From Candidatus Saccharimonadales bacterium (GTDB taxonomy: Bacteria; Patescibacteriota; Saccharimonadia; Saccharimonadales; Saccharimonadaceae): a stretch of DNA of 64,000 nt. The notes below the pieces were generated by a model. It saw nothing but the letters and a program-made list of their open reading frames with translations. It had not been told where the DNA came from and did not search any database. Positions 29,642-57,751 of this stretch are shown here, one piece after another; within the stretch, counting starts at the first letter, position 1; the number at the start of each line of letters is the position of its first letter. The translations under genes were made by a program, and so were the position numbers. The DNA lies in NCBI GenBank assembly GCA_047974525.1, contig JBKECJ010000007.1, positions 36,508 to 100,507 on the forward strand, given 5' to 3'.

Positions 29642-31060
29642 TTATCGAGATGAAAGTAGAATTTGGCCAGATTTGTCCGATAGGGTTGACTTTGTTTTGC
29701 CAGTAAGATCTAGGTGCGCCGTATAAACTTTATCCCCGTAGCGCCTTTCAAATATAAATATCCCATTTCGCTTTGCTCGCTTCACCTTCAATTTGCCCCG
29801 AATCAGCACTTCGTCTGTTCGCCATAGCTCAAGTAATTTGCGGTAAAACTCCAATACGGAATCATCATCTTTGCATTGTCGGTCGTATTCGGCAAAATCT
29901 AGCGGCGCCCGCGCATTGTCACGCGAAACGCGCTTAATCACCGCCATCGCCTCTGTTTTTGACTTCCCCTCTTTGATTAGTTGATGATAAATCGCTCGCG
30001 ATTGCACCCCTGGATAATCCTCAATATTATTTCCGAGGACGGGATTTTTCGTGCCAATTTCTTGCCCCTGATAAATACACGGGTAATTCGCTGGTAGCAG
30101 AAATTGCAGCATAGCTAGCGCCTTTGGATCGGCATTAAACCGCGATACTGCCCTTGGTGTATCGTGGGATTCTAGTGCAAACGACAGCTTCGGCTCGATC
30201 GTCCATTTCGCCAGCTTCTTAAACCATTTTCGGTAATTGACTGGCTTTGGTCGCGCCTTATCCGAAAACACAGTATCTGCCACATCCAAAATCCCTACAT
30301 TAAACGACGCATCGAAGGCACTCTTGGTGAGCTCATGAAACTTCCCCTTGCCCAAAAAATCTCCGCCCACCGGCTCCGCCAGCGAAAATATCCGTTTCCC
30401 GCCAAATAATTTCTCCAGCGTGCGTACCGTCTCTTTTGTCTGGAAATAATAGAAGAACCCAGGAATACGCGGCAGTCGCCCAGACGCCAGCTTCGACTCC
30501 GAAAGTACGTTTGCTGAGTCCACGCGAAACCCCGCGATTCCCTCGTCCATCCAAAAATCAATAATCTTCTGAAACTCCCGCACTACGCGCGGATTTTGGA
30601 AGTTTAGGTCTGGCTGAGTCTTGTCAAAGAGGTGCAGATAATATTGCCCGCGCACCTGATCATACTCATACGCCGTACCGCCAAAAAACGACTGCCAGTT
30701 GAGCGGTTTATCAATCCAGATGTAATAATCCTTGTACCAAACGTCGCGGTGCCGTGATTTTTCAAACCATTCATGCTTCACGGAAGTGTGGTTTATGACC
30801 AAATCTAGCAGGATTTCTATCTTATATTTGCGCGAAACTTGTACAAGTTTGCGGAAGTCCTGCATGGTGCCAAAGCGGGGGTTTACCTTTCGATAATCCG
30901 ATACGTCGTACCCACCCTCATTCCAGGGGCTCTCAAAAAACGGGTTCAGCCAAATATAATCAGGCCCCAGCTTGGCAATGTCTGGGATCCGCGCCGTAAT
31001 CTCTTTGAGACTCCCAAACGCCGTTGGGTAAATTTGGTATATTAGCTTTCGCCCACTCAT
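29642..31060 (-). CDS. GH13 (alpha-amylase family) glycoside hydrolase
   Basis: 472 aa; ...YQIYPTAFGSL..., ...IILDLVINHTS..., ...GIAGFRVDSANVL... The GFRVD region carries the catalytic nucleophile. Confidence 0.7.
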   Translation of the reverse strand: MSGRKLIYQIYPTAFGSLKEITARIPDIAKLGPDYIWLNPFFESPWNEGGYDVSDYRKVNPRFGTMQDFRKLVQVSRKYKIEILLDLVINHTSVKHEWFEKSRHRDVWYKDYYIWIDKPLNWQSFFGGTAYEYDQVRGQYYLHLFDKTQPDLNFQNPRVVREFQKIIDFWMDEGIAGFRVDSANVLSESKLASGRLPRIPGFFYYFQTKETVRTLEKLFGGKRIFSLAEPVGGDFLGKGKFHELTKSAFDASFNVGILDVADTVFSDKARPKPVNYRKWFKKLAKWTIEPKLSFALESHDTPRAVSRFNADPKALAMLQFLLPANYPCIYQGQEIGTKNPVLGNNIEDYPGVQSRAIYHQLIKEGKSKTEAMAVIKRVSRDNARAPLDFAEYDRQCKDDDSVLEFYRKLLELWRTDEVLIRGKLKVKRAKRNGIFIFERRYGDKVYTAHLDLTGKTKSTLSDKSGQILLSSR

Positions 31061-31129
31061 AATATTTTTATTTTAGCATAAAGAAAGCCTCCGACGAATG
31101 CCGGAGGCTAATATTATTGCGGTTTGGGT

Positions 31130-32872
31130 TTACTTTTCTTCGCCATCGGGCTGAACTTCGCTGCCGTTCGTGACGGGTTCTTCGCTCGTGCCCGTATCGG
31201 CCGTATCCGTATCTTCGGTGACGCCATCTTCGAGGCCGCCCTTGATTGAACCTTCGCCAATCACGCGGGTCTCCTTATTCAGGACGCCCAATGGGCCAAC
31301 CACGGAGCCAACAAACTTGCTGATTGTGTCGTTGAAGGTTTCGCCATTCAGCGCCTCGTTCGACAGTCCAGCCTGCTTAAGCACGCGGGGCAGATCTCCG
31401 AGAAAACTCGTAAGCGTACTGCCCGTACCATCTCCTCTTGAGCTTCCGCCAAAGTCGTAGATGGTGGTCTTTTCGCCCACGCTCGCCATAACCTTACCAA
31501 CATTGGTGGCAACTTCAACCTGCATAGAGCGGTAAATTTCTGCCAGCTCAACCTGAAGGTTAACGCCGTCGTGTTTCGCAAGTGCATCCGCCTTGGCAGA
31601 TTCTGCCTCGGCTTCAGCAAGACCTTTCGCACGGATTGCATCCGCTTCGGCCTTACCTCTTGCAGAGATGGCAGAAGCCTCAGCCTCACCCGCCAGCCTT
31701 ACCTTGTCGGCATCGGCAGCGGCCTGCAGCTTAACGGCTTCGGCCTGTCCAGCAGCATCTTTCTTGGCGGCGTTTGCTCTACCTTCGGCGGCTTTCTCGT
31801 CAACGGCAGCCTGCGCGTCCGCTTCGATCTTGCGCCTTTCAGCATCAGCTTGTGCCCCAATAACCTGCTCTTTCTTGACTGTTTCGGCCTGTGTGACCTT
31901 TACAGTCTGCTCGGTCTCGGCGGCGCGGTTTGCCTGTTCGTTACGAACAACTGCAACCTCACCTTCCTTAGTGGCAAGCTCCTTTTGACGTTCCGTCATC
32001 TGAAGCTGACCTGCCACTTCGGCGTCGGCCTGTGCTTTGTCGGTTTCTGCCTTAAATCCAGCTTCCTGAACTGCCGTATCACGCGTTTTAGCAGCGATAG
32101 CGACCTTGGAAGCGAGTTCGGATTCCTGAGCTTGCTGCTCGGATTCCGCGGTTTTCTGGCGAATTGCCTGATTTGCTTCTGCGGTGATATTGGCGGCCTT
32201 ACGACGCATGGACTCGCGCTCTTCAGCGGCGAGATCTTTGTAGTAAGTTGCCTCTTTTGGATCACGTACTTCCTGAATATATAGCTGAACTTTGTAGCCC
32301 AGCTCGGCCATCTGGCCTGAAATATTCTTCTGTACTGCCTCGTCGAGCTTGTCCTTGCCCACCATGACGTCAACAGGCGTCATGGTAGAAATAACAGCAC
32401 GCACTCCGCCCGCAACCGCATTTTTGATAATATCTTCGATTTCGGGCTTTTGCTTGTCGAGAAATTGCCGGATTGCTGGCTGCAGCGTCTCTATCGTATC
32501 GGCATTGGGTGCATACGAGATGACCCAGTCGATATCGACTTCGACACCGTCTCTGGTTTTCATTGTGTCGCCTTTTTGTTCAGCTTTTTCCACGCAGATG
32601 TCAAACTTCTGTGCGCGCTGGATAAACGGGATGACCAAACTTGCGCCCGCAATCTTTACTTTGGGCTCATAGGTTACCTGTTCTTCTTCGACTTCGACGC
32701 CGTCGCGCATCATTTTGACTTTCTTTGTAACTTTCTTGGTGGCGCCAATACCCGTGACGACCAGTACTTCATTACCGGAGACGACTTTAATCATCACCAG
32801 CAGAAGCACCGCAATCACGATCACGGCACCAACGATAGGCAGGTAAGGCAGAACAGCAGACAGAAATTCCAT
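31130..32872 (-). CDS. flotillin-like SPFH/band-7 protein
   Basis: 580 aa. N-terminal TM, SPFH domain (VVTGIGATKK...), and a long Ala/Glu/Lys/Gln-rich coiled coil as in FloT/YuaG. RBS GAGGAGG. Confidence 0.7.
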   Translation of the reverse strand: MEFLSAVLPYLPIVGAVIVIAVLLLVMIKVVSGNEVLVVTGIGATKKVTKKVKMMRDGVEVEEEQVTYEPKVKIAGASLVIPFIQRAQKFDICVEKAEQKGDTMKTRDGVEVDIDWVISYAPNADTIETLQPAIRQFLDKQKPEIEDIIKNAVAGGVRAVISTMTPVDVMVGKDKLDEAVQKNISGQMAELGYKVQLYIQEVRDPKEATYYKDLAAEERESMRRKAANITAEANQAIRQKTAESEQQAQESELASKVAIAAKTRDTAVQEAGFKAETDKAQADAEVAGQLQMTERQKELATKEGEVAVVRNEQANRAAETEQTVKVTQAETVKKEQVIGAQADAERRKIEADAQAAVDEKAAEGRANAAKKDAAGQAEAVKLQAAADADKVRLAGEAEASAISARGKAEADAIRAKGLAEAEAESAKADALAKHDGVNLQVELAEIYRSMQVEVATNVGKVMASVGEKTTIYDFGGSSRGDGTGSTLTSFLGDLPRVLKQAGLSNEALNGETFNDTISKFVGSVVGPLGVLNKETRVIGEGSIKGGLEDGVTEDTDTADTGTSEEPVTNGSEVQPDGEEK

Positions 32873-36422: not shown

Positions 36423-36455
36423 TGGAGCCGCGATCGGGATTTGAACCCGAGACCT
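36423..36455 (-). other. tRNA 3'-end fragment (T-arm plus acceptor 3' strand with encoded CCA): attachment-site core copy
   Basis: Minus strand reads GGTCTCGGGTTCAAATCCCGATCGCGGCTCCA: a perfect T-stem/loop and a 3' acceptor strand. No matching 5' half, D-arm or anticodon arm upstream. Lies directly beside the integrase. Confidence 0.6.
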
Positions 36456-36613
36456 CATCCTTACCATGGAAGTGCTCCATCGCAACAGATAGCGACTCTT
36501 GAAATAACCTATGACACATCATATCGATCCGCACAGATCAGTTTGTTTAGGAACAACGATTCAATAACCCCATATTAGCATTTCGAGCTCAAAAAGTCAA
36601 TATGTTTATGGTC

Positions 36614-37465
36614 TCATATGGAATGAAATTTGCGATACTGAGCTTCAAGATCATTGTCTACGACGTGGGCGTACATTGCAGTCGTATCCATCGAAGAGTG
36701 TCCCATCATAGCGCTCAGATAGCGCATATTGCCGTTGTTTTTTAGAAAGTTAGTTGCATACGAGTGGCGTAACGTATGGGGCGTTACGCGATTAGACTCT
36801 AGCCCTGCTTTTCTCGCGGCGTTACGTATGACGAGCTGTATGGTTGTATGATTTATCCGCTCTCTATGCTGGAACGAAACTATGAGAGCCTCACAGTTGT
36901 CTTTACGAGTCGCGAGATAAGACTCCATGAGTTGTTCTGTTCTCTCGTCGATAAAGCAAAGCCTTGGCTTACTACCCTTTCCAATAATAGTAAACCGGCG
37001 CTCGACGATCTGCCCTCGATTAAGAGATATTAGCTCGGATAGCCTGATTCCAGAGCTATAAAGCAGAGAGACAATAAACTGTGCTCGAATGTTGCAAGCA
37101 GAGTTTATCATCGCCGTGACTTCTTCGGAGGTTAAAAATCTTGGGACTGTCGAGGAGCGCTTTGGTACCGGTATCATACCTGCTTTTATGCAAGGTATTT
37201 CTCGAATATTTAGGTAGTTCAGGACTGTACGCAGTCTGACGATATAATTGCGAACAGTATTCTGCGATCGCCTCTTCGAGAGATAGTTCTTCCAATCTCG
37301 GACATCGTCGAAGGATAATTCAGAAATTGGCTTATCGGGTACAAAAAGAAGCAATGCTTTCTTGCATACCTCGTGGTTTTCCTCGGTTTTAACGGATTGG
37401 TTCTTAAATCGAATATAATCGTTCTTATATAATTCAAATGCCTCTGAGATTAGTAATTCTCTCAT
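36614..37465 (-). CDS. tyrosine recombinase / phage integrase
   Basis: 283 aa; C-terminal ...HTLRHSYATNFLKNNGNMRYLSAMMGHSSMDTTAMYAHV... (R, H-x-x-R, Y catalytic pattern). Confidence 0.85.
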   Translation of the reverse strand: MRELLISEAFELYKNDYIRFKNQSVKTEENHEVCKKALLLFVPDKPISELSFDDVRDWKNYLSKRRSQNTVRNYIVRLRTVLNYLNIREIPCIKAGMIPVPKRSSTVPRFLTSEEVTAMINSACNIRAQFIVSLLYSSGIRLSELISLNRGQIVERRFTIIGKGSKPRLCFIDERTEQLMESYLATRKDNCEALIVSFQHRERINHTTIQLVIRNAARKAGLESNRVTPHTLRHSYATNFLKNNGNMRYLSAMMGHSSMDTTAMYAHVVDNDLEAQYRKFHSI

Positions 37466-37527: not shown

Positions 37528-37908
37528 TTACGCCGCTGCTGGCCGTACCACCCGATTCCGATAGTCTACGTAGTTTCCTTTTGTGTGTCTTGGAGCCGTC
37601 ATTGGGCTTAACTGACCTTTGCCATCTAGCTCGTCCTTAAGAATTCTGCTGAAGACTCGTGACCTGTCTCGTATTTCGCTGTCTGTCCTGACTATTGACG
37701 CAATCGTTCTGTATCGTTGCTCACCTAGTGCCTTGAAGCATTTGCAATGCCAAGGCGTCATGTCTGGATTACTTGTAGAGATTAGCTCTCCGCCTATGCT
37801 GATGACCTTCTCTCTGATTTCTAAAGCTGATAGTTTCCTATCTTCAAATTGCAATTTGCTATTTACTCCTTGCAATTTAGAAGTTGCAATTTGTTTGATT
37901 GACTCCAT
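37528..37908 (-). CDS. hypothetical prophage protein
   Basis: 126 aa ORF upstream of the integrase, same strand. Confidence 0.4.
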   Translation of the reverse strand: MESIKQIATSKLQGVNSKLQFEDRKLSALEIREKVISIGGELISTSNPDMTPWHCKCFKALGEQRYRTIASIVRTDSEIRDRSRVFSRILKDELDGKGQLSPMTAPRHTKGNYVDYRNRVVRPAAA

Positions 37909-38514
37909 CTGTTATTACCTCCAAATTTTTAACGCACGAAAGGTCTTACGCTCTGTTGACCTCTTAGCGTCTATTTTTTATGATAAGAAAAGATAATGCA
38001 AGCAAGAGCGTTACTCGAAATTAAAAATTCTTATGTTTGTCAAGAAATCAAAAGACCTCTTGCGAGGTTGTTTGATTTTGGTCGATACCATAATACTAGC
38101 GCACTTTAAGCGTTTTGTCAACCTGCGCCCCGTGCATTTTACTTTCTTCTCCGCATCGATATAATAGATAGTGGGTGCCTTAGCATGGATTAGCAATCGC
38201 GCTCAGCGTCAACGACGCTAGTAGGTGCTGCGCGTCGATTTTATTAAATTTAATTTCAAATGGAATCTGGGAATATCTCAGATCAAAAAAGAGGATTCCA
38301 CAAATAATCTCGAGAATATTAACTTTGATCATGATAGGAGTAGTAATGGTAACATTTATAACTTCAATTAGTTCGACGTGCGGCGCTGAGCGAGATGGCT
38401 AATCCAAGAATGTTTACTCGTTTCCGCGCCCGCCGCGTGGTGGGCGCCGGCGCGCTTTAGTTCCACCACGAAGTGATATATAATGGAGATACAGCCTTGT
38501 TTGTAGGCTGCGTG

Positions 38515-38590
38515 CTAGCTTAGCTCAGTTGGTAGAGCAGAGGCTTTAAGACCCTCAGGCCATCGGTTCAAATCCAGATAGCTAGCACAT
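38515..38590 (+). tRNA. prophage-encoded tRNA-like gene with atypical anticodon/T arms (anticodon UAA if standard numbering)
   Basis: GCTAGCT-TA-GCTC-AGTTGGTA-GAGC gives canonical acceptor and D arms. The anticodon stem GAGGC/CCCTC has a C.C mismatch and the loop is TTTAAGA. The T region ATCGG-TTCAAAT(C)-CAGAT is imperfect. 3' acceptor strand AGCTAGC. Preceded by TGATATATAAT at ~38473-38481. Confidence 0.55.
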
Positions 38591-38652
38591 AATCTACAAA
38601 CTACGAATATTGGGTAAGCTCGGAAGCGGGCGCGGTTAAGATAGGAGAAGAG

Positions 38653-38922
38653 GTGAGTAAGTTCAAGGATCAGCTAGTCATGGCGTTTATTGCGAAGAAT
38701 TCTGGTGACTTTCCACAATACTACGTCACGGACGAGACGAAGCTGTATCGTATCGAAGACGAGGATTATTTGCTGGCGCAGGCGGTCGTTAGTGGGGCGG
38801 TGGACGAGGAGCGCTTCTATTTGATTGCGAAGAAGCACGTGTGCGGTACAGCTATTTTAAATATGAGCGGCGCGAGGGAAATAACTTCTGACGAAGCAAA
38901 AGAGTTATCTAGTCATGCGTGA
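38653..38922 (+). CDS. hypothetical protein, first gene of a coupled pair
   Basis: GTG start with RBS AGGAGAAGAG; 89 aa. Its stop overlaps the next start (ATGCGTGA). Confidence 0.5.
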   Translation: MSKFKDQLVMAFIAKNSGDFPQYYVTDETKLYRIEDEDYLLAQAVVSGAVDEERFYLIAKKHVCGTAILNMSGAREITSDEAKELSSHA

Positions 38923-39880
38923 TGTCGGCGGGTACCTTCAGGCATTCTCGGCGCTCGAGGCGGAAATAAATGCGCTCAGCTACTCAATTTTATTTGACGA
39001 CAACCAAATTAATACGTATTCAATGAAAATCGCCGAACTCGTCATGCGATCCGGCATTGAGCTCGAATCGGTGGCGAATGATATATTCAGGGGATGGACG
39101 AGTGAGGATGAGATAAAGAATGACGACGGGGCGGCCGAAAAATCATTCGCGTGGCTAAAGAAAAGTAGCGGATGGAAGCTTGAGCAAAAACAGATCTCAA
39201 TACTTTCTCCTTCTATGTTTTTCTCCAGAACTTTCTCTCCGTCGTTTGCTCCGTTTGGGTATAAGAAAAATTCGTCTGACGACTACTATTCTGCCTACAA
39301 TAGCATTAAGCACGACCGCGCCAAGAACTCGCATAAGGCGAACCTGAATATACTGATCCGATCTATGGGCGCGCTGTACGTTCTGCTGACATACTTTTAT
39401 GGCTCTAGGATAAATTCGACAATATTCTCGGCTAGCGTAGCCGATGCGAAGCTCAGTTTTTTGTCCGATTTTGGGATGGATTTCAGTAGCGACCTAGACA
39501 GGTCTATATTTCTTACTTTGTACGATTGGAGATACTACGACTATAAAGAGGCGCACGGCGAAACCCTGAGAGGACTTATCGAAACAATCAAGCGCAACGG
39601 ACGAGAAGACGCGGTTAGAAAAATCGCGAGGTTCCCTAGGACGTCCTACGATACGATTTTTAGATTTATCCTTAGAAACTCCTCGGAAGGAATTAGTATG
39701 CCGGAAAGAAACAAACTCGCAAGGAGTCTCCTAGCGGACGGACTGCTAAAAGAGCTCGAAATGCGAACGAAAGTAAACTACAACTACGAGCGAATTTACG
39801 CTGAGTCCGAGTCGGAGCTTGCCGACGAGAACGAAACGTATAGCCGTCGCATTTGCGATAATTTTGACGACCATATATAG
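38915..39880 (+). CDS. hypothetical protein with a possible HEPN-like R-x4-H motif; candidate abortive-infection/defence cargo
   Basis: 321 aa. Motif ...YNSIKHDRAKNSHKANL... (R-AKNS-H). The only plus-strand genes at this end of the prophage. Hairpin TAGTCGC-TGCTATT-GCGACTA downstream. Confidence 0.5.
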   Translation: MRDVGGYLQAFSALEAEINALSYSILFDDNQINTYSMKIAELVMRSGIELESVANDIFRGWTSEDEIKNDDGAAEKSFAWLKKSSGWKLEQKQISILSPSMFFSRTFSPSFAPFGYKKNSSDDYYSAYNSIKHDRAKNSHKANLNILIRSMGALYVLLTYFYGSRINSTIFSASVADAKLSFLSDFGMDFSSDLDRSIFLTLYDWRYYDYKEAHGETLRGLIETIKRNGREDAVRKIARFPRTSYDTIFRFILRNSSEGISMPERNKLARSLLADGLLKELEMRTKVNYNYERIYAESESELADENETYSRRICDNFDDHI

Positions 39881-39998
39881 AAGCTTATCGTCTGACGATC
39901 TGGCGGACGGACAGAAAAATAGTCGCTGCTATTGCGACTATCTTCCTACTCATTGTTATCGAAAAACTCTTTTCTTAAATCATAGTTTACACTAAAAA

Positions 39999-40214
39999 CT
40001 ACTTCGATTCAAACATTATCGTTTTGACAAAAGTTTTCTTCTGTCTGTCGATCTCATTGAATGCGTATCCAAGCAACATATTAACTGTCATATTTAATGA
40101 CAATGATTGCTCTTCGGATAGCTTGCTCACCCTTCCATATAGTTCTTTGTCCGTTATTCTTAGCGCAATTGGAATTGTTTTATTCGCGTCTCCAATCTGC
40201 TTAATAGCTTGCAT
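39999..40214 (-). CDS. small prophage protein (71 aa)
   Basis: Internal start MQAIKQIGDANKT... with RBS GGAGAGGAG; the longer track ORF has no RBS. Confidence 0.4.
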   Translation of the reverse strand: MQAIKQIGDANKTIPIALRITDKELYGRVSKLSEEQSLSLNMTVNMLLGYAFNEIDRQKKTFVKTIMFESK

Positions 40215-42263: not shown

Positions 42264-44285
42264 TTAAACTTTCGTGTAATACATCGTAAAGAATGACCTA
42301 GTGTAGGTGGTATAGGTGCCGGTTGAATCAATCACGATTTGGGTTGTATTCGCGTAGGCGTTCGTACTCGTGCCATACGGAAACGGCAAAAAGCTCGTTC
42401 CATCCGTCATGAACGATTCTAGTTTGACGACAAGATCTATGCCTGCCACGTCATGAGTTATGCGGGTAGTGCCGGTCGTGACAGCGGTAGTTTTCAGGAT
42501 AGTTTTCTTGTATATAGTTTTGCCGTCGACCCATTTGCTCGAAGTAGCTACTTCACTCGAGGCGTAGTTGAAATCTCCAATTGAATCAAAATCGATATTA
42601 TCGGCCTTCGTCATATTGAAATCGATTATTGATGCAGGCAACCATTGGTTAGAGGAATTCTTTGATATGACGCCAAGCGGTAGCTCCTTAGGCGGAAATT
42701 CACCAATTGAATCTGCATGCTGCTTCAAAGTTCCGCTTGAATCGAGCGTGAGATAACCGACGCCCCCAGCCGGAATTACTGTTGTCGTGTTAGGAATAGT
42801 TTGCTGATCAACGATAACCCACTCTCCATCGACCAGCGCGGCGCCATCGGATAAAACGAGCAAGCTCGCAGACGCGGACAGTGTGCAGCCGTAGGCTACC
42901 TTTGAGGGGCTGGGAATAAGGGCGTCAACGTATGACTTATTTGTGATGTCGCTCGCGGATGACGGGGCTGAAACTTGAGACCTTCCAGACGCGTCACGCT
43001 CGACGATAGTGCCCGCGAGCGGCGAGGAACTAATATCCGTAATAGATTGGTCGCCGGAGCTCGACACGACGTACGCCCGGTCATTCGTAGAGGCGTCCGT
43101 AATTTTATCTAGCTTTCCGGAAGAAAGTGCCGAGATGTCTGAGGTATTAGTCGAAACGGACGACTTCAGGGTGTCATAGCCGTTAACGGATCCGGTTCCG
43201 TCCGCTTCGGCGAACACTTGGCCCTCCGACGCACTGCCTTTTATTAGTCCTGGGACTGAATTTGTAAAGTTAGCGATTGGCGTTGATCCTCCGCCAGAAT
43301 TTGTGAGAATCCACTCTTCGCCAGACGAAGTTCCGTAATACCCAAAGCGCCTTTGGTTGTCGATGTCCCATAAGACCGCTCCGTTTATTACTGTTGTTTG
43401 TCCAGAAGCGGCAATCCAAGCATTAGTGATGTCTGTCTGCGTGTATATCTCCGGAACGCCATTTGCGGCGAAAGCTTCATTTTTCAACGACACTATATCA
43501 TTTTTTGCCTGCTCGAGCCCCAAGAAAGTTGCGGCATTCATCATGCCAGCTTCAGTTTCGTTAGCCGTTGGGAATACGGCTTGCGTAGAGCTTTGAGTTC
43601 CATCTGATAGATTTATCGTATCCATGTCGGCCGTTACGGCACTAGCGTCGGTCGATAGACTAAAAGTCTCAATTAGATCGTAATTCGCGTCCGTTTTATT
43701 CACGACGTCTGACGGCTTGGCAAAGCTTTCTGGATTATACCCGCTGTCTTCGGCAATTTGCCCATCACTAATGGACACAAAATTCCCAGCTACTCCCTCG
43801 ATTTCGAGGCTTCCGGGGTCTCCCTTTTCGCCTGTAATTACTTCGATCGTTATCGACTGAGAGCCGCAATCGTTGATAAACACCCTAGAGCCAACTGCCC
43901 CGTCAATAGTCGTATTGCCAGAATTAGCATTGCTCGGCCCCCCAGTAACCCCAAACTCAAGAATTGCTTTTCTAAGCGGAATGTCGTTTTCTTCAACCAC
44001 GACTATATCGGCATAATAAACGGATTCTGGGTCGAGCTGGCTTTGCTCTGCCGTAATTGGAAAAAGAACTTTTGAATTGTCTTCAGGATCTAGTTCGCCA
44101 GTAATAATAAATTTCGCACTCGTGGAGTCGCTCTCGTCGTCAAATGGAACGTCCTTGCATGTCAGCGTAATGGTCGCCCCCTCAAGACTAGTAGGCTGCC
44201 CATTCACTCTGTAATACATCAAAATAGAGTTGTAGACCCCGCGGTTTAGATTGGCGATTCTGGTAGTTCTAAGGCTTCGCGCCAT
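42264..44285 (-). CDS. tail fiber / receptor-binding protein
   Basis: 673 aa, Ser/Thr/Gly/Asn-rich with repeated beta-like segments; ends the structural module before lysis genes. Preceded by conserved late promoter/leader element (a). Confidence 0.55.
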   Translation of the reverse strand: MARSLRTTRIANLNRGVYNSILMYYRVNGQPTSLEGATITLTCKDVPFDDESDSTSAKFIITGELDPEDNSKVLFPITAEQSQLDPESVYYADIVVVEENDIPLRKAILEFGVTGGPSNANSGNTTIDGAVGSRVFINDCGSQSITIEVITGEKGDPGSLEIEGVAGNFVSISDGQIAEDSGYNPESFAKPSDVVNKTDANYDLIETFSLSTDASAVTADMDTINLSDGTQSSTQAVFPTANETEAGMMNAATFLGLEQAKNDIVSLKNEAFAANGVPEIYTQTDITNAWIAASGQTTVINGAVLWDIDNQRRFGYYGTSSGEEWILTNSGGGSTPIANFTNSVPGLIKGSASEGQVFAEADGTGSVNGYDTLKSSVSTNTSDISALSSGKLDKITDASTNDRAYVVSSSGDQSITDISSSPLAGTIVERDASGRSQVSAPSSASDITNKSYVDALIPSPSKVAYGCTLSASASLLVLSDGAALVDGEWVIVDQQTIPNTTTVIPAGGVGYLTLDSSGTLKQHADSIGEFPPKELPLGVISKNSSNQWLPASIIDFNMTKADNIDFDSIGDFNYASSEVATSSKWVDGKTIYKKTILKTTAVTTGTTRITHDVAGIDLVVKLESFMTDGTSFLPFPYGTSTNAYANTTQIVIDSTGTYTTYTRSFFTMYYTKV

Positions 44286-44327
44286 ACAATATCCTCTACA
44301 TGGCGCCTAATAACTTAATTATACCAC
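44286..44327 (-). promoter_or_regulatory. conserved late promoter/leader element, copy a
   Basis: Minus strand TGGTATAAT-TAAGT-TATTAGGCGCCATGTAGAGGA-TATTGT-ATG. Confidence 0.55.
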
Positions 44328-47682: not shown

Positions 47683-48331
47683 ATGGCAACCTCGCCCTAT
47701 TACCGCTGTCGTTTTGTCGAGGCCCAAATCGCCTCTTCATATTCTCAATGACTTCGAGCTGCTTGTTTTCGTAAATTTGCGCAAAATCAAAGTTGTCTCG
47801 CCATTGCTCTACTCTCGCTAGCGCCCCGAGTACGAGGCATTCGCTAAATTCGTCCGGGATAACGGCCTTGTCTTCCGGCTTCACTAGCTGTTTTGGCTTC
47901 GCCAGGTACATATGTCGAACTTGCCATAGCTCAGGCAGCCCCCCAACCGTCGGCGCACAGGGCTTATTGTCGCGCGGCAGAGTAAAGAATACCTTATTCG
48001 AAAATACGGTATAGGTGTAGTTTCTATCCGGATACGCATATTCCGTAGATTTATCGAAATACTCGCGGAATGGCAGATACCTCAGCCTTCGAGGCATCGA
48101 GCCTTTCTTATTCACTAGTATCTGCTCAGTCTGCTGCCAATCGCGCGGCAGATCCAGCTCTCCCCCGCTTACCTCCACGGGATCGTCATAACGTTCCAAA
48201 AACATATATTCTGCTTCGCCCAGAATTTCATTTTGGCAATCATTCAAAAAATCGCCAATCTGACCATCGCCTAACTCGGGATCTTTCGCTTTGTTGCGTA
48301 CCCTCTCTGTGAGCTGCGCTAATGTAGTCAC
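47660..48331 (-). CDS. phage tail-module protein
   Basis: GTG start at 48331 preceded by GGAGA and conserved element (b); 223 aa. Confidence 0.5.
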   Translation of the reverse strand: MTTLAQLTERVRNKAKDPELGDGQIGDFLNDCQNEILGEAEYMFLERYDDPVEVSGGELDLPRDWQQTEQILVNKKGSMPRRLRYLPFREYFDKSTEYAYPDRNYTYTVFSNKVFFTLPRDNKPCAPTVGGLPELWQVRHMYLAKPKQLVKPEDKAVIPDEFSECLVLGALARVEQWRDNFDFAQIYENKQLEVIENMKRRFGPRQNDSGNRARLPYGHKVTI

Positions 48332-48372
48332 AATAATCTCCTACATGGCGCCTAATATTTTAATTATATCAC
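48332..48372 (-). promoter_or_regulatory. conserved late promoter/leader element, copy b
   Basis: Minus strand TGATATAAT-TAAAA-TATTAGGCGCCATGTAGGAGA-TTATT-GTG. Confidence 0.55.
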
Positions 48373-48484: not shown

Positions 48485-48793
48485 ATGGATAAAAAGTTAG
48501 TGCAGCCAAACAACAAAAAGACGCTAATAATCGCTGGGGCTTGTCTGCTCGCCGTCGCAATCCTATCCGCGACTGCGCTGATTATTGTCAATATGCTCAA
48601 TACGAAAGATGATGATTCTGCGCAGAGGCTTGAAGATGCGAAAAACTGCGTAGTATCGGCAGGCCAAAAATCTACTTCCGGATCATTTGCAGACGGTTCC
48701 TATACTCCGTCAGGCGCCAGCTACACACAAATTATCGCCGAATGCGCTGAAAAACATAGCGTCTCTTATGGCGACCTAACAGCCGAATTATAG
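48485..48793 (+). CDS. small membrane-anchored protein (counter-oriented cargo gene)
   Basis: 102 aa; N-terminal TM LIIAGACLLAVAILSATALIIV; RBS GGAGAGAAGGAAG; extended -10 TGGTAAAAT at ~48435-48443. Confidence 0.5.
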   Translation: MDKKLVQPNNKKTLIIAGACLLAVAILSATALIIVNMLNTKDDDSAQRLEDAKNCVVSAGQKSTSGSFADGSYTPSGASYTQIIAECAEKHSVSYGDLTAEL

Positions 48794-48805
48794 GGGTCGC
48801 ATCGT

Positions 48806-49267
48806 ATGAGCGAGGCTCCGAATGCTAAAAAGCACAACACAAAGGTCGCTACTTATCTCGTCGCAGGCTCACTTATAGTTTTAGGGTGCGCTGCCTTCGA
48901 CAGCCAAACTACTTGCGAAAGACAGCCCATTCCTTTCGCAACAGAAACAGTTCGTCTAGATAATCAGTATGCGGACTATAGGAGCGAGGCGGCAGGAATT
49001 AGCGGGGAAAAAGAAATCTGCCGACAGCACGGAAAAATAGTCTCCGAAAGAACGACAGCAAGTCCAGTTAGCAAAAAAATATATGTCGGCACGATCGCCA
49101 GGTCGCCAAGTGCAACATATACCCCATCTACCCCCAGTAGCCAATCTCCTCCGGCCACAACGCCGAGAGGGAGAACAGGGGCAATCTGTAATGATGGCTC
49201 ATCAAGTAAAGCAACGGGCTCTGGGGCGTGTAGCCACCACGGCGGCGTAGCGTATTGGACGTACTAA
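48806..49267 (+). CDS. putative secreted/lipoprotein with Pro/Ser/Thr-rich linker and Cys-rich C-terminus
   Basis: 153 aa; signal-like VATYLVAGSLIVLGCAAF; ...SPSATYTPSTPSSQSPPATTP... Confidence 0.5.
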   Translation: MSEAPNAKKHNTKVATYLVAGSLIVLGCAAFDSQTTCERQPIPFATETVRLDNQYADYRSEAAGISGEKEICRQHGKIVSERTTASPVSKKIYVGTIARSPSATYTPSTPSSQSPPATTPRGRTGAICNDGSSSKATGSGACSHHGGVAYWTY

Positions 49268-49268
49268 A

Positions 49269-49598
49269 ATGAAGTATGTATTATTTATCATTGGCGTAAT
49301 TGGGATTATCTGGTCGATTTGGATGCTCGGCGGAAAAATAGATAACCACAAAGAGACTGGGTTGAAAATTTGCGGAGATTTATATGCCTATGATGGAGTG
49401 TATCATGACAATGACTTTATTTGGTACGCAGAATGCTATAGTGAATATGACGATTCAGCAAACACTTGGTTCGGATGGTCGTTATTCTTGCTCATAATAG
49501 GCACGCCGGTCACGATATTGTCTGGAATTGCAATCCTGCGCTCCAAGAGCAACGCAAAAGCCACTCCCAAGCAAGTCAACGATTCGGTCACTGGTTAA
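49269..49598 (+). CDS. small two-TM membrane protein
   Basis: 109 aa; MKYVLFIIGVIGIIWSIWMLGG... and ...WSLFLLIIGTPVTILSGIAIL... Confidence 0.5.
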   Translation: MKYVLFIIGVIGIIWSIWMLGGKIDNHKETGLKICGDLYAYDGVYHDNDFIWYAECYSEYDDSANTWFGWSLFLLIIGTPVTILSGIAILRSKSNAKATPKQVNDSVTG

Positions 49599-52228: not shown

Positions 52229-53040
52229 TATCTAGTTGCCCCCACTCCCCCGAACGAGCCACCACCAGATTTATTCACTAGGGCAGGCAACCCAAGCATA
52301 GATCGTTGATGATTAGTAGCAGTACCATTGATAACAGCGCGTGCGTTTGCATCGCCAGCGCTCGCCATATCGTTCAATATGTCGTTCATGGTAATCGTCG
52401 AGGAGTTTAGGGCTACATAAGCATTCGCAGTTATCGGCTTGCCATTTGCATCATAAAAATAAAATCCATTCATGTCGTTACCCTTATTTGACCCCCTTTG
52501 AACTCGTCCGACCGTCTTCGTCTCAGCTGCCTTTTGCGTATTGTAGTAGTCGCTCAAAGCCTTAGCCTGAATTGAAGCGGCTTCTCTCTGAGCCTGTAGC
52601 TGCGCCTGACGATCAAGATCGGCTTGGTAGAGGCTCTGCGCATACTTATACTGATCGTTCGTCAGCGAGTTTAGTGTGTTCTCGAGGTCGAATTTGCGAT
52701 TATTATAATTCTGTCGAGTAGACTCCTGATTTGCGTTCAAATCGCGGTTTAGCTGTGTCACGGCAGGAGTATAACTATTCTTCTCGTAATTAGCGGCATA
52801 ATTCTGCCCAATATTACTCCAGCCAAGTCCACGGTTAGCCGCAGTAGACTGCGCGCCGTAGTTGTACTGGTCTTTTGCGCTATCGAGTCCACCTTTGTCT
52901 ATATTGTATTGCTCGCTCAAAGAGTTAAGGGCTCCCGTAAGCTGATCTGGGATAGCGTTAATCTGGTTTTGAATGCCCTGCTTTTGCGAAGCGTAAGCTG
53001 GGTTTGATTGTTCTATATATGTCTGAAGAGATGTCGCCAC
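52228..53040 (-). CDS. phage structural protein (Gln/Asn-rich)
   Basis: GTG start 53040 preceded by conserved element (c); 270 aa. Confidence 0.45.
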   Translation of the reverse strand: MATSLQTYIEQSNPAYASQKQGIQNQINAIPDQLTGALNSLSEQYNIDKGGLDSAKDQYNYGAQSTAANRGLGWSNIGQNYAANYEKNSYTPAVTQLNRDLNANQESTRQNYNNRKFDLENTLNSLTNDQYKYAQSLYQADLDRQAQLQAQREAASIQAKALSDYYNTQKAAETKTVGRVQRGSNKGNDMNGFYFYDANGKPITANAYVALNSSTITMNDILNDMASAGDANARAVINGTATNHQRSMLGLPALVNKSGGGSFGGVGATR

Positions 53041-53082
53041 GTAAAATCCTCTACATGGCGCCTAATACTTCTATTGTATCAC
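53041..53082 (-). promoter_or_regulatory. conserved late promoter/leader element, copy c
   Basis: Minus strand TGATACAAT-AGAAG-TATTAGGCGCCATGTAGAGGA-TTTTAC-GTG. Confidence 0.55.
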
Positions 53083-57233: not shown

Positions 57234-57710
57234 TTATTCGCCAAGCTGGAGGGCAATCACGAACCCATCTTCGGGATTATCCCGAGATTTTCGTGACTTA
57301 CCTGCGTCGTCGCCTTCACCCAAATCATCCGCATCTTCGGATAACTTATTCATCTTCTTATCGCCCTTGCATTCCGCTTCGAGGCAATCAAGGAGCATAT
57401 TAGTCTGCTTTCGTACTGCGTCGATATTCAACTTCGGCTCCTTGCCGTCCTCTACGGAGTCGGCGATAAAATGTAGCAAGTCTTGATGCATCCGCTCTTG
57501 TTTGCTGTTAAATCTTACGATAGCCCGCGCAACTGTTCCGTAGTATGGGTTGTCACTTTCGTCGAGCTCTGCGTACCCTGCGCGCGCTTCGGCCTCGTCG
57601 GCGTCTAGATCGTGCAGGTTTTCAAGAAACCGAGCCTTTAAATCTCTACCTTCGTCATCATTCCATTGCCTTCCAGCATCCTTAGTTGTGGCGTCTGAGC
57701 CTTTTTGCAT
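57234..57710 (-). CDS. phage protein (acidic)
   Basis: Start MQKGSD (ATG 57710) preceded by AGGAGA inside conserved element (d). In-frame upstream ATGs lie inside the element. Confidence 0.45.
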   Translation of the reverse strand: MQKGSDATTKDAGRQWNDDEGRDLKARFLENLHDLDADEAEARAGYAELDESDNPYYGTVARAIVRFNSKQERMHQDLLHFIADSVEDGKEPKLNIDAVRKQTNMLLDCLEAECKGDKKMNKLSEDADDLGEGDDAGKSRKSRDNPEDGFVIALQLGE

Positions 57711-57751
57711 AGCAATTCTCCTCATGGCGCCTAATATATTCACTATACCAC
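57711..57751 (-). promoter_or_regulatory. conserved late promoter/leader element, copy d (variant)
   Basis: Minus strand TGGTATAGT-GAATA-TATTAGGCGCCATGAGGAGA-ATTGCT-ATG. Confidence 0.5.

Follow-up and report, generated by a model that had tools for sequence, protein, structure and literature searches.

The stretch of DNA analysed here, hereafter called the window, comprises 64,000 nucleotides from a Candidatus Saccharimonadales bacterium (assembly GCA_047974525.1, contig JBKECJ010000007.1, positions 36,508 to 100,507 of the forward strand). It contains a prophage in which two overlapping open reading frames (ORFs), ORF-S and ORF-L, lie close to the integrase gene. An original prediction, made from the nucleotide sequence, had described them as a candidate anti-phage system with a HEPN-like abortive infection (Abi) protein as its larger component. 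This report covers the two genes, the protein family of ORF-L, the genomic company of that family and the prophage that carries the pair.

Organisation of the two genes

The two genes and the translation signal of the first one are located as follows:

38653-38922, plus strand: ORF-S, GTG start, 89 amino acids
38915-39880, plus strand: ORF-L, ATG start, 321 amino acids
38643-38647, plus strand: Shine-Dalgarno sequence AGGAG of ORF-S, read from the sequence, with a 5-nt spacer to the GTG

The reading frames overlap by 8 nt (ATGCGTGA, at 38915-38922), and ORF-L is preceded only by a weak ribosome-binding site (AAGAG, about 12 nt 5' of its ATG), which fits translational coupling to ORF-S. When scored with a codon table derived from the window's long ORFs (training mean 0.24 +/- 0.13), both genes are of coding type in the annotated frame (+0.27 for ORF-S and +0.17 for ORF-L), and their five other frames all score -0.17 or lower. 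Besides, both genes are called in the NCBI metagenome-assembled genome of Candidatus Saccharimonadales (ACK5MU_03940 and ACK5MU_03945). Coordinates, AGGAG and codon usage agree with the predicted arrangement of a short gene with a strong ribosome-binding site overlapping a longer one. The neighbouring genes on both sides are all on the minus strand, which bears out the statement that the pair is transcribed against the surrounding prophage genes; ORF-L probably has its own transcription unit, opposed to those of the phage.

Extent and annotation of the ORF-L family

ORF-L belongs to a large family of proteins of about 300 residues that is nameless in every library searched. A word-indexed protein search with ORF-L returned three proteins only; the exhaustive phmmer search returned at least 512 cluster representatives with E <= 1e-3, of which 224 reached E <= 1e-10. 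Nearly all of these relatives have about 300 residues and match residues ~7-165 of ORF-L, and all the source names encountered for them were 'hypothetical protein'. Conservation in the family is counted here over 124 aligned relatives. A second sub-family, mainly proteobacterial and equally unannotated, is joined to it with an hhalign probability of 99.6%, and its counts refer to 26 members. These come from 26 proteobacterial, myxobacterial and actinobacterial genome loci (L019-L045, alignment A5). Their proteins carry an N-terminal extension of about 120 residues with a conserved P-G-x-Y-x-P-R, share the motifs E-V-E-x3-K and W-Y-x-A-Y-N-A-V-K-H-D-R, and are absent from Pfam.

No match was obtained for ORF-L in Pfam, PADLOC, PHROG or NCBIfam, nor among GenBank phages; a Pfam scan at E <= 1 gave only a sub-threshold HTH_29. 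The 124 relatives showed no consistent match to any model of Pfam, NCBIfam or PADLOC, and these relatives together with the 26 of the second sub-family did not match the Pfam HEPN and Abi families at E <= 0.01. Membership of Abi_2 (PF07751), to which the large protein had been likened, is consequently not upheld, as neither ORF-L nor the 150 relatives match that profile. The PADLOC comparison proposed at the same time for both proteins gave nothing either, since neither ORF-S nor ORF-L has a match in PADLOC-DB v2.0 at E <= 1. PDB sequences were not matched by the profile or by single sequences, and Foldseek retrieved nothing from the PDB under E = 0.88; in BFVD its sole match was an uncharacterised phage fragment, apparently a relative itself. 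A literature search on the motif strings of the family found no paper.

Predicted fold and conserved residues

ORF-L can be divided into the following parts:

38915-39424, plus strand: N-terminal domain, residues 1-170, a conserved HEPN-like helical bundle that defines the family
39059-39079, plus strand: helix-2 motif E49-x-E51-x3-K55, which fits the HEPN E-x3-[KR] element
39296-39319, plus strand: signature Y128-x3-K132-H133-[DN]134-R135 at the end of helix 3, with the proposed catalytic His and Arg
39425-39880, plus strand: C-terminal domain of residues 171-321 with the stop codon after it, helical, and differing from one relative to another

The structural model of ORF-L suggests a four-helix up-and-down bundle similar to solved HEPN domains. 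The active site of such domains has been described as an R-x4-6-H motif ending helix 3, an acidic residue of helix 2 that usually stands in an E-x3-[KR] element, and a variable insert between helices 2 and 3 (PMC3710099). The helix-2 motif and the long helix 2-3 insert of ORF-L match this description, and a cluster of basic and His residues occupies the expected place. E51 and K55 lie inside a predicted helix (37-61), and the motif is strongly conserved (E49 in 118/124, E51 in 124/124 and K55 in 108/124 relatives) and kept in the proteobacterial sub-family. The same is true of the signature at the end of helix 3, with Y128 in 123, K132 in 123, H133 in all and R135 in 117 of the 124 relatives; KHD is invariant in the second sub-family. 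Other conserved residues are E15 and E17 (both in helix 1), D29, S36, (R45), K92, P113, S168 and F171.

The motif on which the original prediction had relied is a different one. The string YNSIKHDRAKNSH, which contains R135-x4-H140, is indeed present at residues 128-140 of ORF-L; H140, however, is found in only 12/124 relatives. A His at positions +5 to +7 occurs in 15/124, and in 3/26 of the second sub-family, so that a conserved R-x4-6-H ending helix 3 is not a property of the family. In addition, an R-x4-H appears in 25% of shuffled ORF-L sequences (R-x4-6-H in 59%), and its presence alone is therefore not beyond chance. The invariant His of the family (H133) stands two residues before the Arg, whereas the canonical HEPN His follows the Arg by 4-6 residues. 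Because of this order of His and Arg in the basic cluster, together with the helix-2 motif and the helix 2-3 insert, the family is called here a non-canonical HEPN lineage. Catalysis, predicted to be that of an RNase, is plausible from the sequences owing to the many invariant polar residues.

Alternative nuclease folds were considered. Assignment of ORF-L as a RES-domain protein or as a PD-(D/E)xK nuclease was ruled out, as the model is nearly all helical and the E-x-E lies within a helix. As regards the C-terminal domain, which is helical over residues 206-320 of the model, only about 10 relatives can be aligned to ORF-L over the full length, and it is possibly a sensor or regulatory domain.

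Genomic company of the relatives

The relatives of ORF-L recur among defence genes and at the ends of mobile elements, in agreement with the cargo setting originally predicted for the pair. This is qualitative guilt by association, although it is consistent across phyla.

Some relatives are part of type I restriction-modification (R-M) operons. At L001 1175-9689, hsdR-hsdM-hsdS are succeeded by the gene of an AAA_13 ABC ATPase (730 residues) and then by the relative P0003, whose reading frame overlaps that of the ATPase by 7 nt; this ATPase matches the PADLOC defence candidate PDC-S06 (E 6e-192), and the layout recalls a split PrrC/RloC. Another relative, P0002, is located directly before hsdS and overlaps its start. 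On plasmids, the relative of pNP40 comes immediately after abiF, in the block abiEi-abiEii, recA, umuC-like gene, abiF; in pUCCL632E, pLLUC7005B and the pCV56-type plasmids, this position is occupied by abiQ, a hypothetical gene and a relative of 307 residues. This 307-residue lactococcal protein aligns to ORF-L at E 5e-27; the homologue from pUCCL632E has the accession WP_014570269.1. The pNP40 copy itself (L063 6983-7897; NC_010901.1 17122-18036) still encodes the conserved N-terminus KTFFQIYQSLEKELL; upstream of its RefSeq TTG start there is no ATG, GTG or TTG, and R45 and R135 are replaced by G and K, respectively. Possible explanations are decay of this copy or the use of an unusual start codon.

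Relatives at element ends follow tyrosine or serine integrases, often beside the tRNA of the attachment (att) site. P0156, present in hundreds of Clostridium contigs, comes directly after the tyrosine integrase of a small element, and in some variants the next gene encodes a type IIG methylase/Eco57I protein. One of these Clostridium contexts (L048 144-6804), a small integrative element, includes a D5_N/DUF5906 primase, a lone Phage_capsid gene, a Tn916-type Xis and the integrase; the element resembles a phage satellite, with P0156 as its terminal cargo. P0171 comes immediately after the gene of a large serine recombinase, and a tRNA-Ser gene is 180 nt away.

Within two genes of various relatives there are AAA_21/AriA-like, Old, SduA, LlaJI, type I methyltransferase and HEPN_LA2681 genes. 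The putAbiC gene adjoins relatives in two contexts, once with overlapping reading frames; one relative stands beside a caspase and nSTAND pair, and Xre-type helix-turn-helix (HTH) genes are near others. The genes around relatives at about 45 loci were also compared all against all by BLAST. The only recurrent family was that of the serine recombinases (5 loci); tyrosine integrases adjoin relatives in 3 contexts. A conserved partner gene for the family was thus ruled out.

Proposed role of ORF-L

On this evidence ORF-L is likely to be a HEPN-fold cargo gene of the defence-island type. The further step, that its product acts as a defence or abortive-infection RNase, is one towards which the balance tips slightly; the invariant residues at the positions of the HEPN active site (helix 2, the insert and the end of helix 3) were counted in its favour. 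The proposal of a candidate anti-phage, HEPN-like system thus survives through the cargo position in the prophage and the defence context of the relatives. Its other supports, namely the likeness to Abi_2, the R-x4-H argument and the view of the pair as a two-gene unit, have fallen away.

According to this model, ORF-L would be a moron (cargo gene) at the integrase end of a temperate, SU10-like podovirus inserted in a tRNA-Thr gene of its Saccharimonadales host. The lysogen would produce ORF-L as a stand-alone effector of abortive infection or superinfection exclusion. The protein would be an endoribonuclease that needs no metal and stays inactive until the cell is infected by a competing phage; once activated, it would cut tRNA, rRNA or mRNA and translation would stop. 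The variable C-terminal domain may be the sensor or an autoinhibitory part, and ORF-S a translationally coupled local addition with an antitoxin-like effect, restraining or tuning ORF-L.

Several points weigh against this model. No experiment on any member of the family was found, and no hidden Markov model (HMM) of a known HEPN or defence family matches. Catalysis is not assured, because the canonical R-x4-6-H is kept in only 15 of the 124 relatives, and some HEPN domains, such as that of AbiA, are inactive (PMC13064643). The role given to ORF-S lacks support from comparison, as this protein has no homologue. Finally, one relative belongs to a polysaccharide-synthesis cluster and another one stands between housekeeping genes.

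ORF-S and alternative explanations

ORF-S is an acidic protein (net charge -5). In 5.8 billion clusters no homologue was detected but itself, tblastn against every locus holding a relative of ORF-L gave no match, and the protein matched nothing in Pfam, PADLOC, PHROG or the PDB. Its single-sequence AlphaFold model is poor, with a predicted local distance difference test (pLDDT) score of 56. The idea that ORF-S could be what is left of the AAA_13 ATPase, or of another gene next to the relatives, was discarded, since tblastn shows no similarity. As an orphan, ORF-S makes the two-gene architecture specific to this lineage; the two-gene system of the original prediction does not extend to the family, in which no partner recurs beside the relatives except serine recombinases. 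The simplest guess is that ORF-S is a lineage-specific regulator or an antitoxin-like partner, and that it inhibits ORF-L is a tentative suggestion which should be regarded as doubtful.

The arrangement could also be explained by a toxin-antitoxin addiction module, in which translational coupling would let the labile antitoxin, ORF-S, be produced ahead of the HEPN toxin, ORF-L, and in larger amounts. The main benefit would be stabilisation of the prophage and not the exclusion of other phages. The layout is that of classical type II modules: the upstream gene is small, encodes an acidic protein and overlaps the next one by 8 nt, only this upstream gene has a strong ribosome-binding site, and the product of the large gene has a HEPN-like fold. 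Nevertheless, ORF-S is an orphan, a two-gene unit conserved across genomes, as expected for type II systems, was not found, and more than 500 relatives occur without a conserved neighbour, which means that the putative toxin is kept without an antitoxin of the ORF-S type. This explanation is considered unlikely, and it is not exclusive, since addiction would be compatible with a defence role.

It has to be considered as well that ORF-L may be a non-catalytic HEPN-like protein, that is, a binder of RNA or nucleotides or a scaffold working in the life cycle of the mobile element, for example in the control of integration and excision. The lack of the canonical R-x4-6-H in the family, the existence of inactive HEPN domains (AbiA; PMC13064643) and the fact that recombinases are the commonest neighbours (the serine recombinases and tyrosine integrases mentioned above) are consistent with it. 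On the other hand, about 14 invariant or nearly invariant polar residues (E15, E17, D29, S36, E49, E51, K55, K92, Y128, K132, H133, R135, S168) suggest an enzyme, and no integrase is close by where relatives occupy type I R-M operons or the Abi hot spots of plasmids. A non-catalytic role of this kind seems quite unlikely.

The prophage and its attachment site

The integrase end of the prophage is defined by two features:

36423-36496, minus strand: attL, a degenerate tRNA-Thr(GGU) gene forming the left border of the prophage, detected by ARAGORN at relaxed threshold only
36614-37465, minus strand: tyrosine integrase of the prophage (PHROG phrog_1 integrase, E 4.5e-49; Pfam Phage_integrase)

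The host chromosome to the left of ~36.45 kb carries rpsL (S12), rpsG (S7), fusA (EF-G), tuf (EF-Tu) and rpsJ (S10). The degenerate tRNA-Thr(GGU) gene has kept an intact 3' half, which spans the anticodon loop through the CCA end, and its 5' half pairs poorly; two Logan contigs of sample SRR30067235, one of host and one of phage, end at 36452 and 36441. Positions 36423-36496 are the attL of a prophage integrated into a tRNA-Thr gene; attR, where the intact copy of this tRNA is expected, would be outside the window. The phage contig of SRR30067235 extends to at least 64160.

The two-gene module is at the integrase end, about 2.2 kb from attL. Past the module, the prophage encodes an endolysin with PG_binding_1, a tail fibre, an internal virion protein, an adaptor and a portal of SU10 type, a terminase, VRR-NUC and YopX. 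No relative was found among cultured phages, either by megablast of the neighbourhood or by tblastn of ORF-L and P0156 against GenBank phages.

Other features of the region were observed. In the str operon of the host, a Band_7 protein (580 aa) and an alpha-amylase (472 aa) are inserted between rpsG and fusA (29642-32872, minus strand), which is unusual because the ribosomal operon is normally tight there. Four copies of a 48-nt element occur in the prophage (44280-44327, 48325-48372, 53035-53082 and 57704-57751), at intervals of 4.0-4.7 kb, and share 63-79% identity with the reference copy. Read on the minus strand, the element resembles a -10 box (GTGGTATAAT) followed by a conserved AGGCGCCATGTAG; the copies are probably promoters or operators of the phage, placed where its operons begin. 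A second plus-strand islet, at 48485-49598 amid minus-strand structural genes, contains ORFs of 102, 153 and 109 aa, one of them with DUF3761, and it may be another moron.

The phage-borne tRNA(UAA) and the proposed transcription unit

A tRNA gene and two hairpins surround the module:

38514-38588, plus strand: tRNA with anticodon UAA, found by ARAGORN (Rfam tRNA, 55.4 bits)
38426-38447, plus strand: G+C-rich hairpin of 9 bp 5' of the tRNA, followed by UUUAGUU (centroid structure, z = -1.0)
39919-39941, plus strand: hairpin 3' of ORF-L, with an 8-bp stem (-20.2 kcal/mol, z = -2.75)

The tRNA is co-oriented with both ORFs and ends 64 nt before ORF-S. Its use as the attachment site was ruled out, since attL is the tRNA-Thr remnant and the tRNA(UAA) is inside the prophage; it is therefore carried by the phage. 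Regarding the cargo position next to an integrase and a tRNA that had been predicted for the pair, the proximity to the integrase holds, but the adjoining tRNA is not the att site.

The first hairpin may act as a terminator and keep upstream transcription from entering the module. The second one, located 39 nt past the stop codon of ORF-L and between convergent genes, is likely to be a terminator, although the U-tract after its stem is weak. Folding revealed no terminator or stable structure between the tRNA and ORF-S (z = 0.0). A consensus promoter scan gave no strong promoter directly 5' of the tRNA; an extended -10-like element, TGATATATA, was spotted by eye at ~38473-38481. The tRNA, ORF-S and ORF-L may form one transcription unit.

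Bacterial tRNA-Leu molecules are of class II and have a long variable arm. The shape of the tRNA(UAA) is unusual for a tRNA-Leu for this reason, as it is a class-I cloverleaf of 75 nt without a long variable arm and with a C31-C39 mismatch closing the anticodon stem; its body is about 80% identical to phage tRNA-Ile, -Thr and -Arg. The frequency of TTA codons is 9.2 per 1000 in the prophage genes and 4.5 in the host genes of the window, and this doubling makes plain codon supplementation a sufficient explanation for the tRNA. An Rfam scan upstream of ORF-L found it as the only structured RNA, and no tandem repeats forming an antitoxin-like array were found in 37900-40100. At the loci of the relatives there is no co-oriented upstream tRNA; where a tRNA gene is nearby, it is encoded on the other strand and is an att site.

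One can imagine that tRNA(UAA), ORF-S and a tRNA-cutting ORF-L make up a three-part system. The tRNA would then be either a decoy or RNA antitoxin (type III-like), or a replacement that resists the nuclease and keeps prophage translation going while host tRNA is cut and superinfecting phages are starved. The co-orientation and continuity of the three genes, the atypical tRNA, the RNA antitoxins reported for the HEPN Abi toxins AbiF and AbiV (PMC13064643) and the phage tRNAs known to counter anticodon nucleases (PMC10264068, PMC11464382) fit such a system, but both of its forms are very improbable given the relatives without such a tRNA, the lack of a repeat array and the ordinary cause offered by the TTA codons. 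If true, such self-immunity would be a design so far undescribed among HEPN Abi proteins, in a prophage of the candidate phyla radiation (CPR; here Saccharibacteria).

Implications

ORF-L is best understood as a probable prophage moron of HEPN type and Abi-like character, whose family is unprofiled and has its proposed catalytic residues in a changed order. It is of a kind that specialists expect at prophage ends. If active, the family would be a widespread HEPN lineage, with at least 512 clusters in Saccharibacteria, Clostridia, Lactococcus plasmids and many Proteobacteria, that is recognised by no Pfam, NCBIfam or PADLOC model. Since K-H-[DN]-R and E-x-E-x3-K depart from the R-x4-6-H rule, motif-based HEPN screens would miss it. 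Its activity would also add one more phage-defence gene to the very small set of CPR bacteria and their prophages. The lactococcal homologues offer a tractable route to testing, as they are located on classical Abi plasmids with established phage panels and escape-mutant methods.

Comparison with known systems

By analogy, the closest functional counterparts of ORF-L would be the solo HEPN Abi proteins (HepS, AbiD/F and AbiV), and PrrC and RloC would also be close. HepS is a 'HEPN solo' anticodon nuclease encoded by the Salmonella prophage Gifsy-1, with a canonical R100-x4-H105 (PMC13043305), and it was taken as a precedent for the role proposed here. The ORF-L family differs from it in having H-[DN]-R instead of that motif and an additional C-terminal domain of about 150 residues, and no sequence relationship between HepS and ORF-L was detected.

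AbiD, AbiD1 and AbiF (Abi_2, PF07751) are similar to ORF-L in being stand-alone HEPN Abi proteins of ~300-350 residues from plasmids and prophages. They keep the R-x4-6-H, whereas the ORF-L family does not, and the AbiF-type systems rely on an upstream RNA element (PMC11381338, PMC13064643) and not on a small protein. In AbiV/AF0298 an alternative His is provided by the helix 2-3 insert (PMC3710099), whereas in ORF-L it belongs to the signature that ends helix 3 and precedes the Arg by two residues; the HEPN_AbiV HMM does not match ORF-L.

PrrC and RloC are HEPN effectors found in type I R-M loci, and P0003, placed after hsdRMS and an AAA_13 ATPase of the PrrC/RloC ATPase family, is reminiscent of them. 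Nevertheless, ORF-L and most of its relatives have no fused or adjacent ABC ATPase, the motif differs and there is no sequence match.

A last comparison concerns Rhea, a validated lactococcal single-gene Abi-like system of 303 aa with 611 HMMER homologues, whose escape mutants map to the terminase large subunit (PMC11381338, PMC12184496). By its description Rhea resembles the ORF-L family, being a single protein of about 300 residues from lactococcal conjugative plasmids with no InterPro or HHpred match and several hundred distant homologues; moreover, members of the ORF-L family with 291-307 residues are found in the Abi hot spots of plasmids from the Rhea study. It differs in that its authors describe a TnsE-like C-terminus and no HEPN domain (PMC11381338), and none of the plasmids of strain UCCL617 is among the tblastn matches to the ORF-L family. 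That Rhea belongs to this family is rather doubtful.

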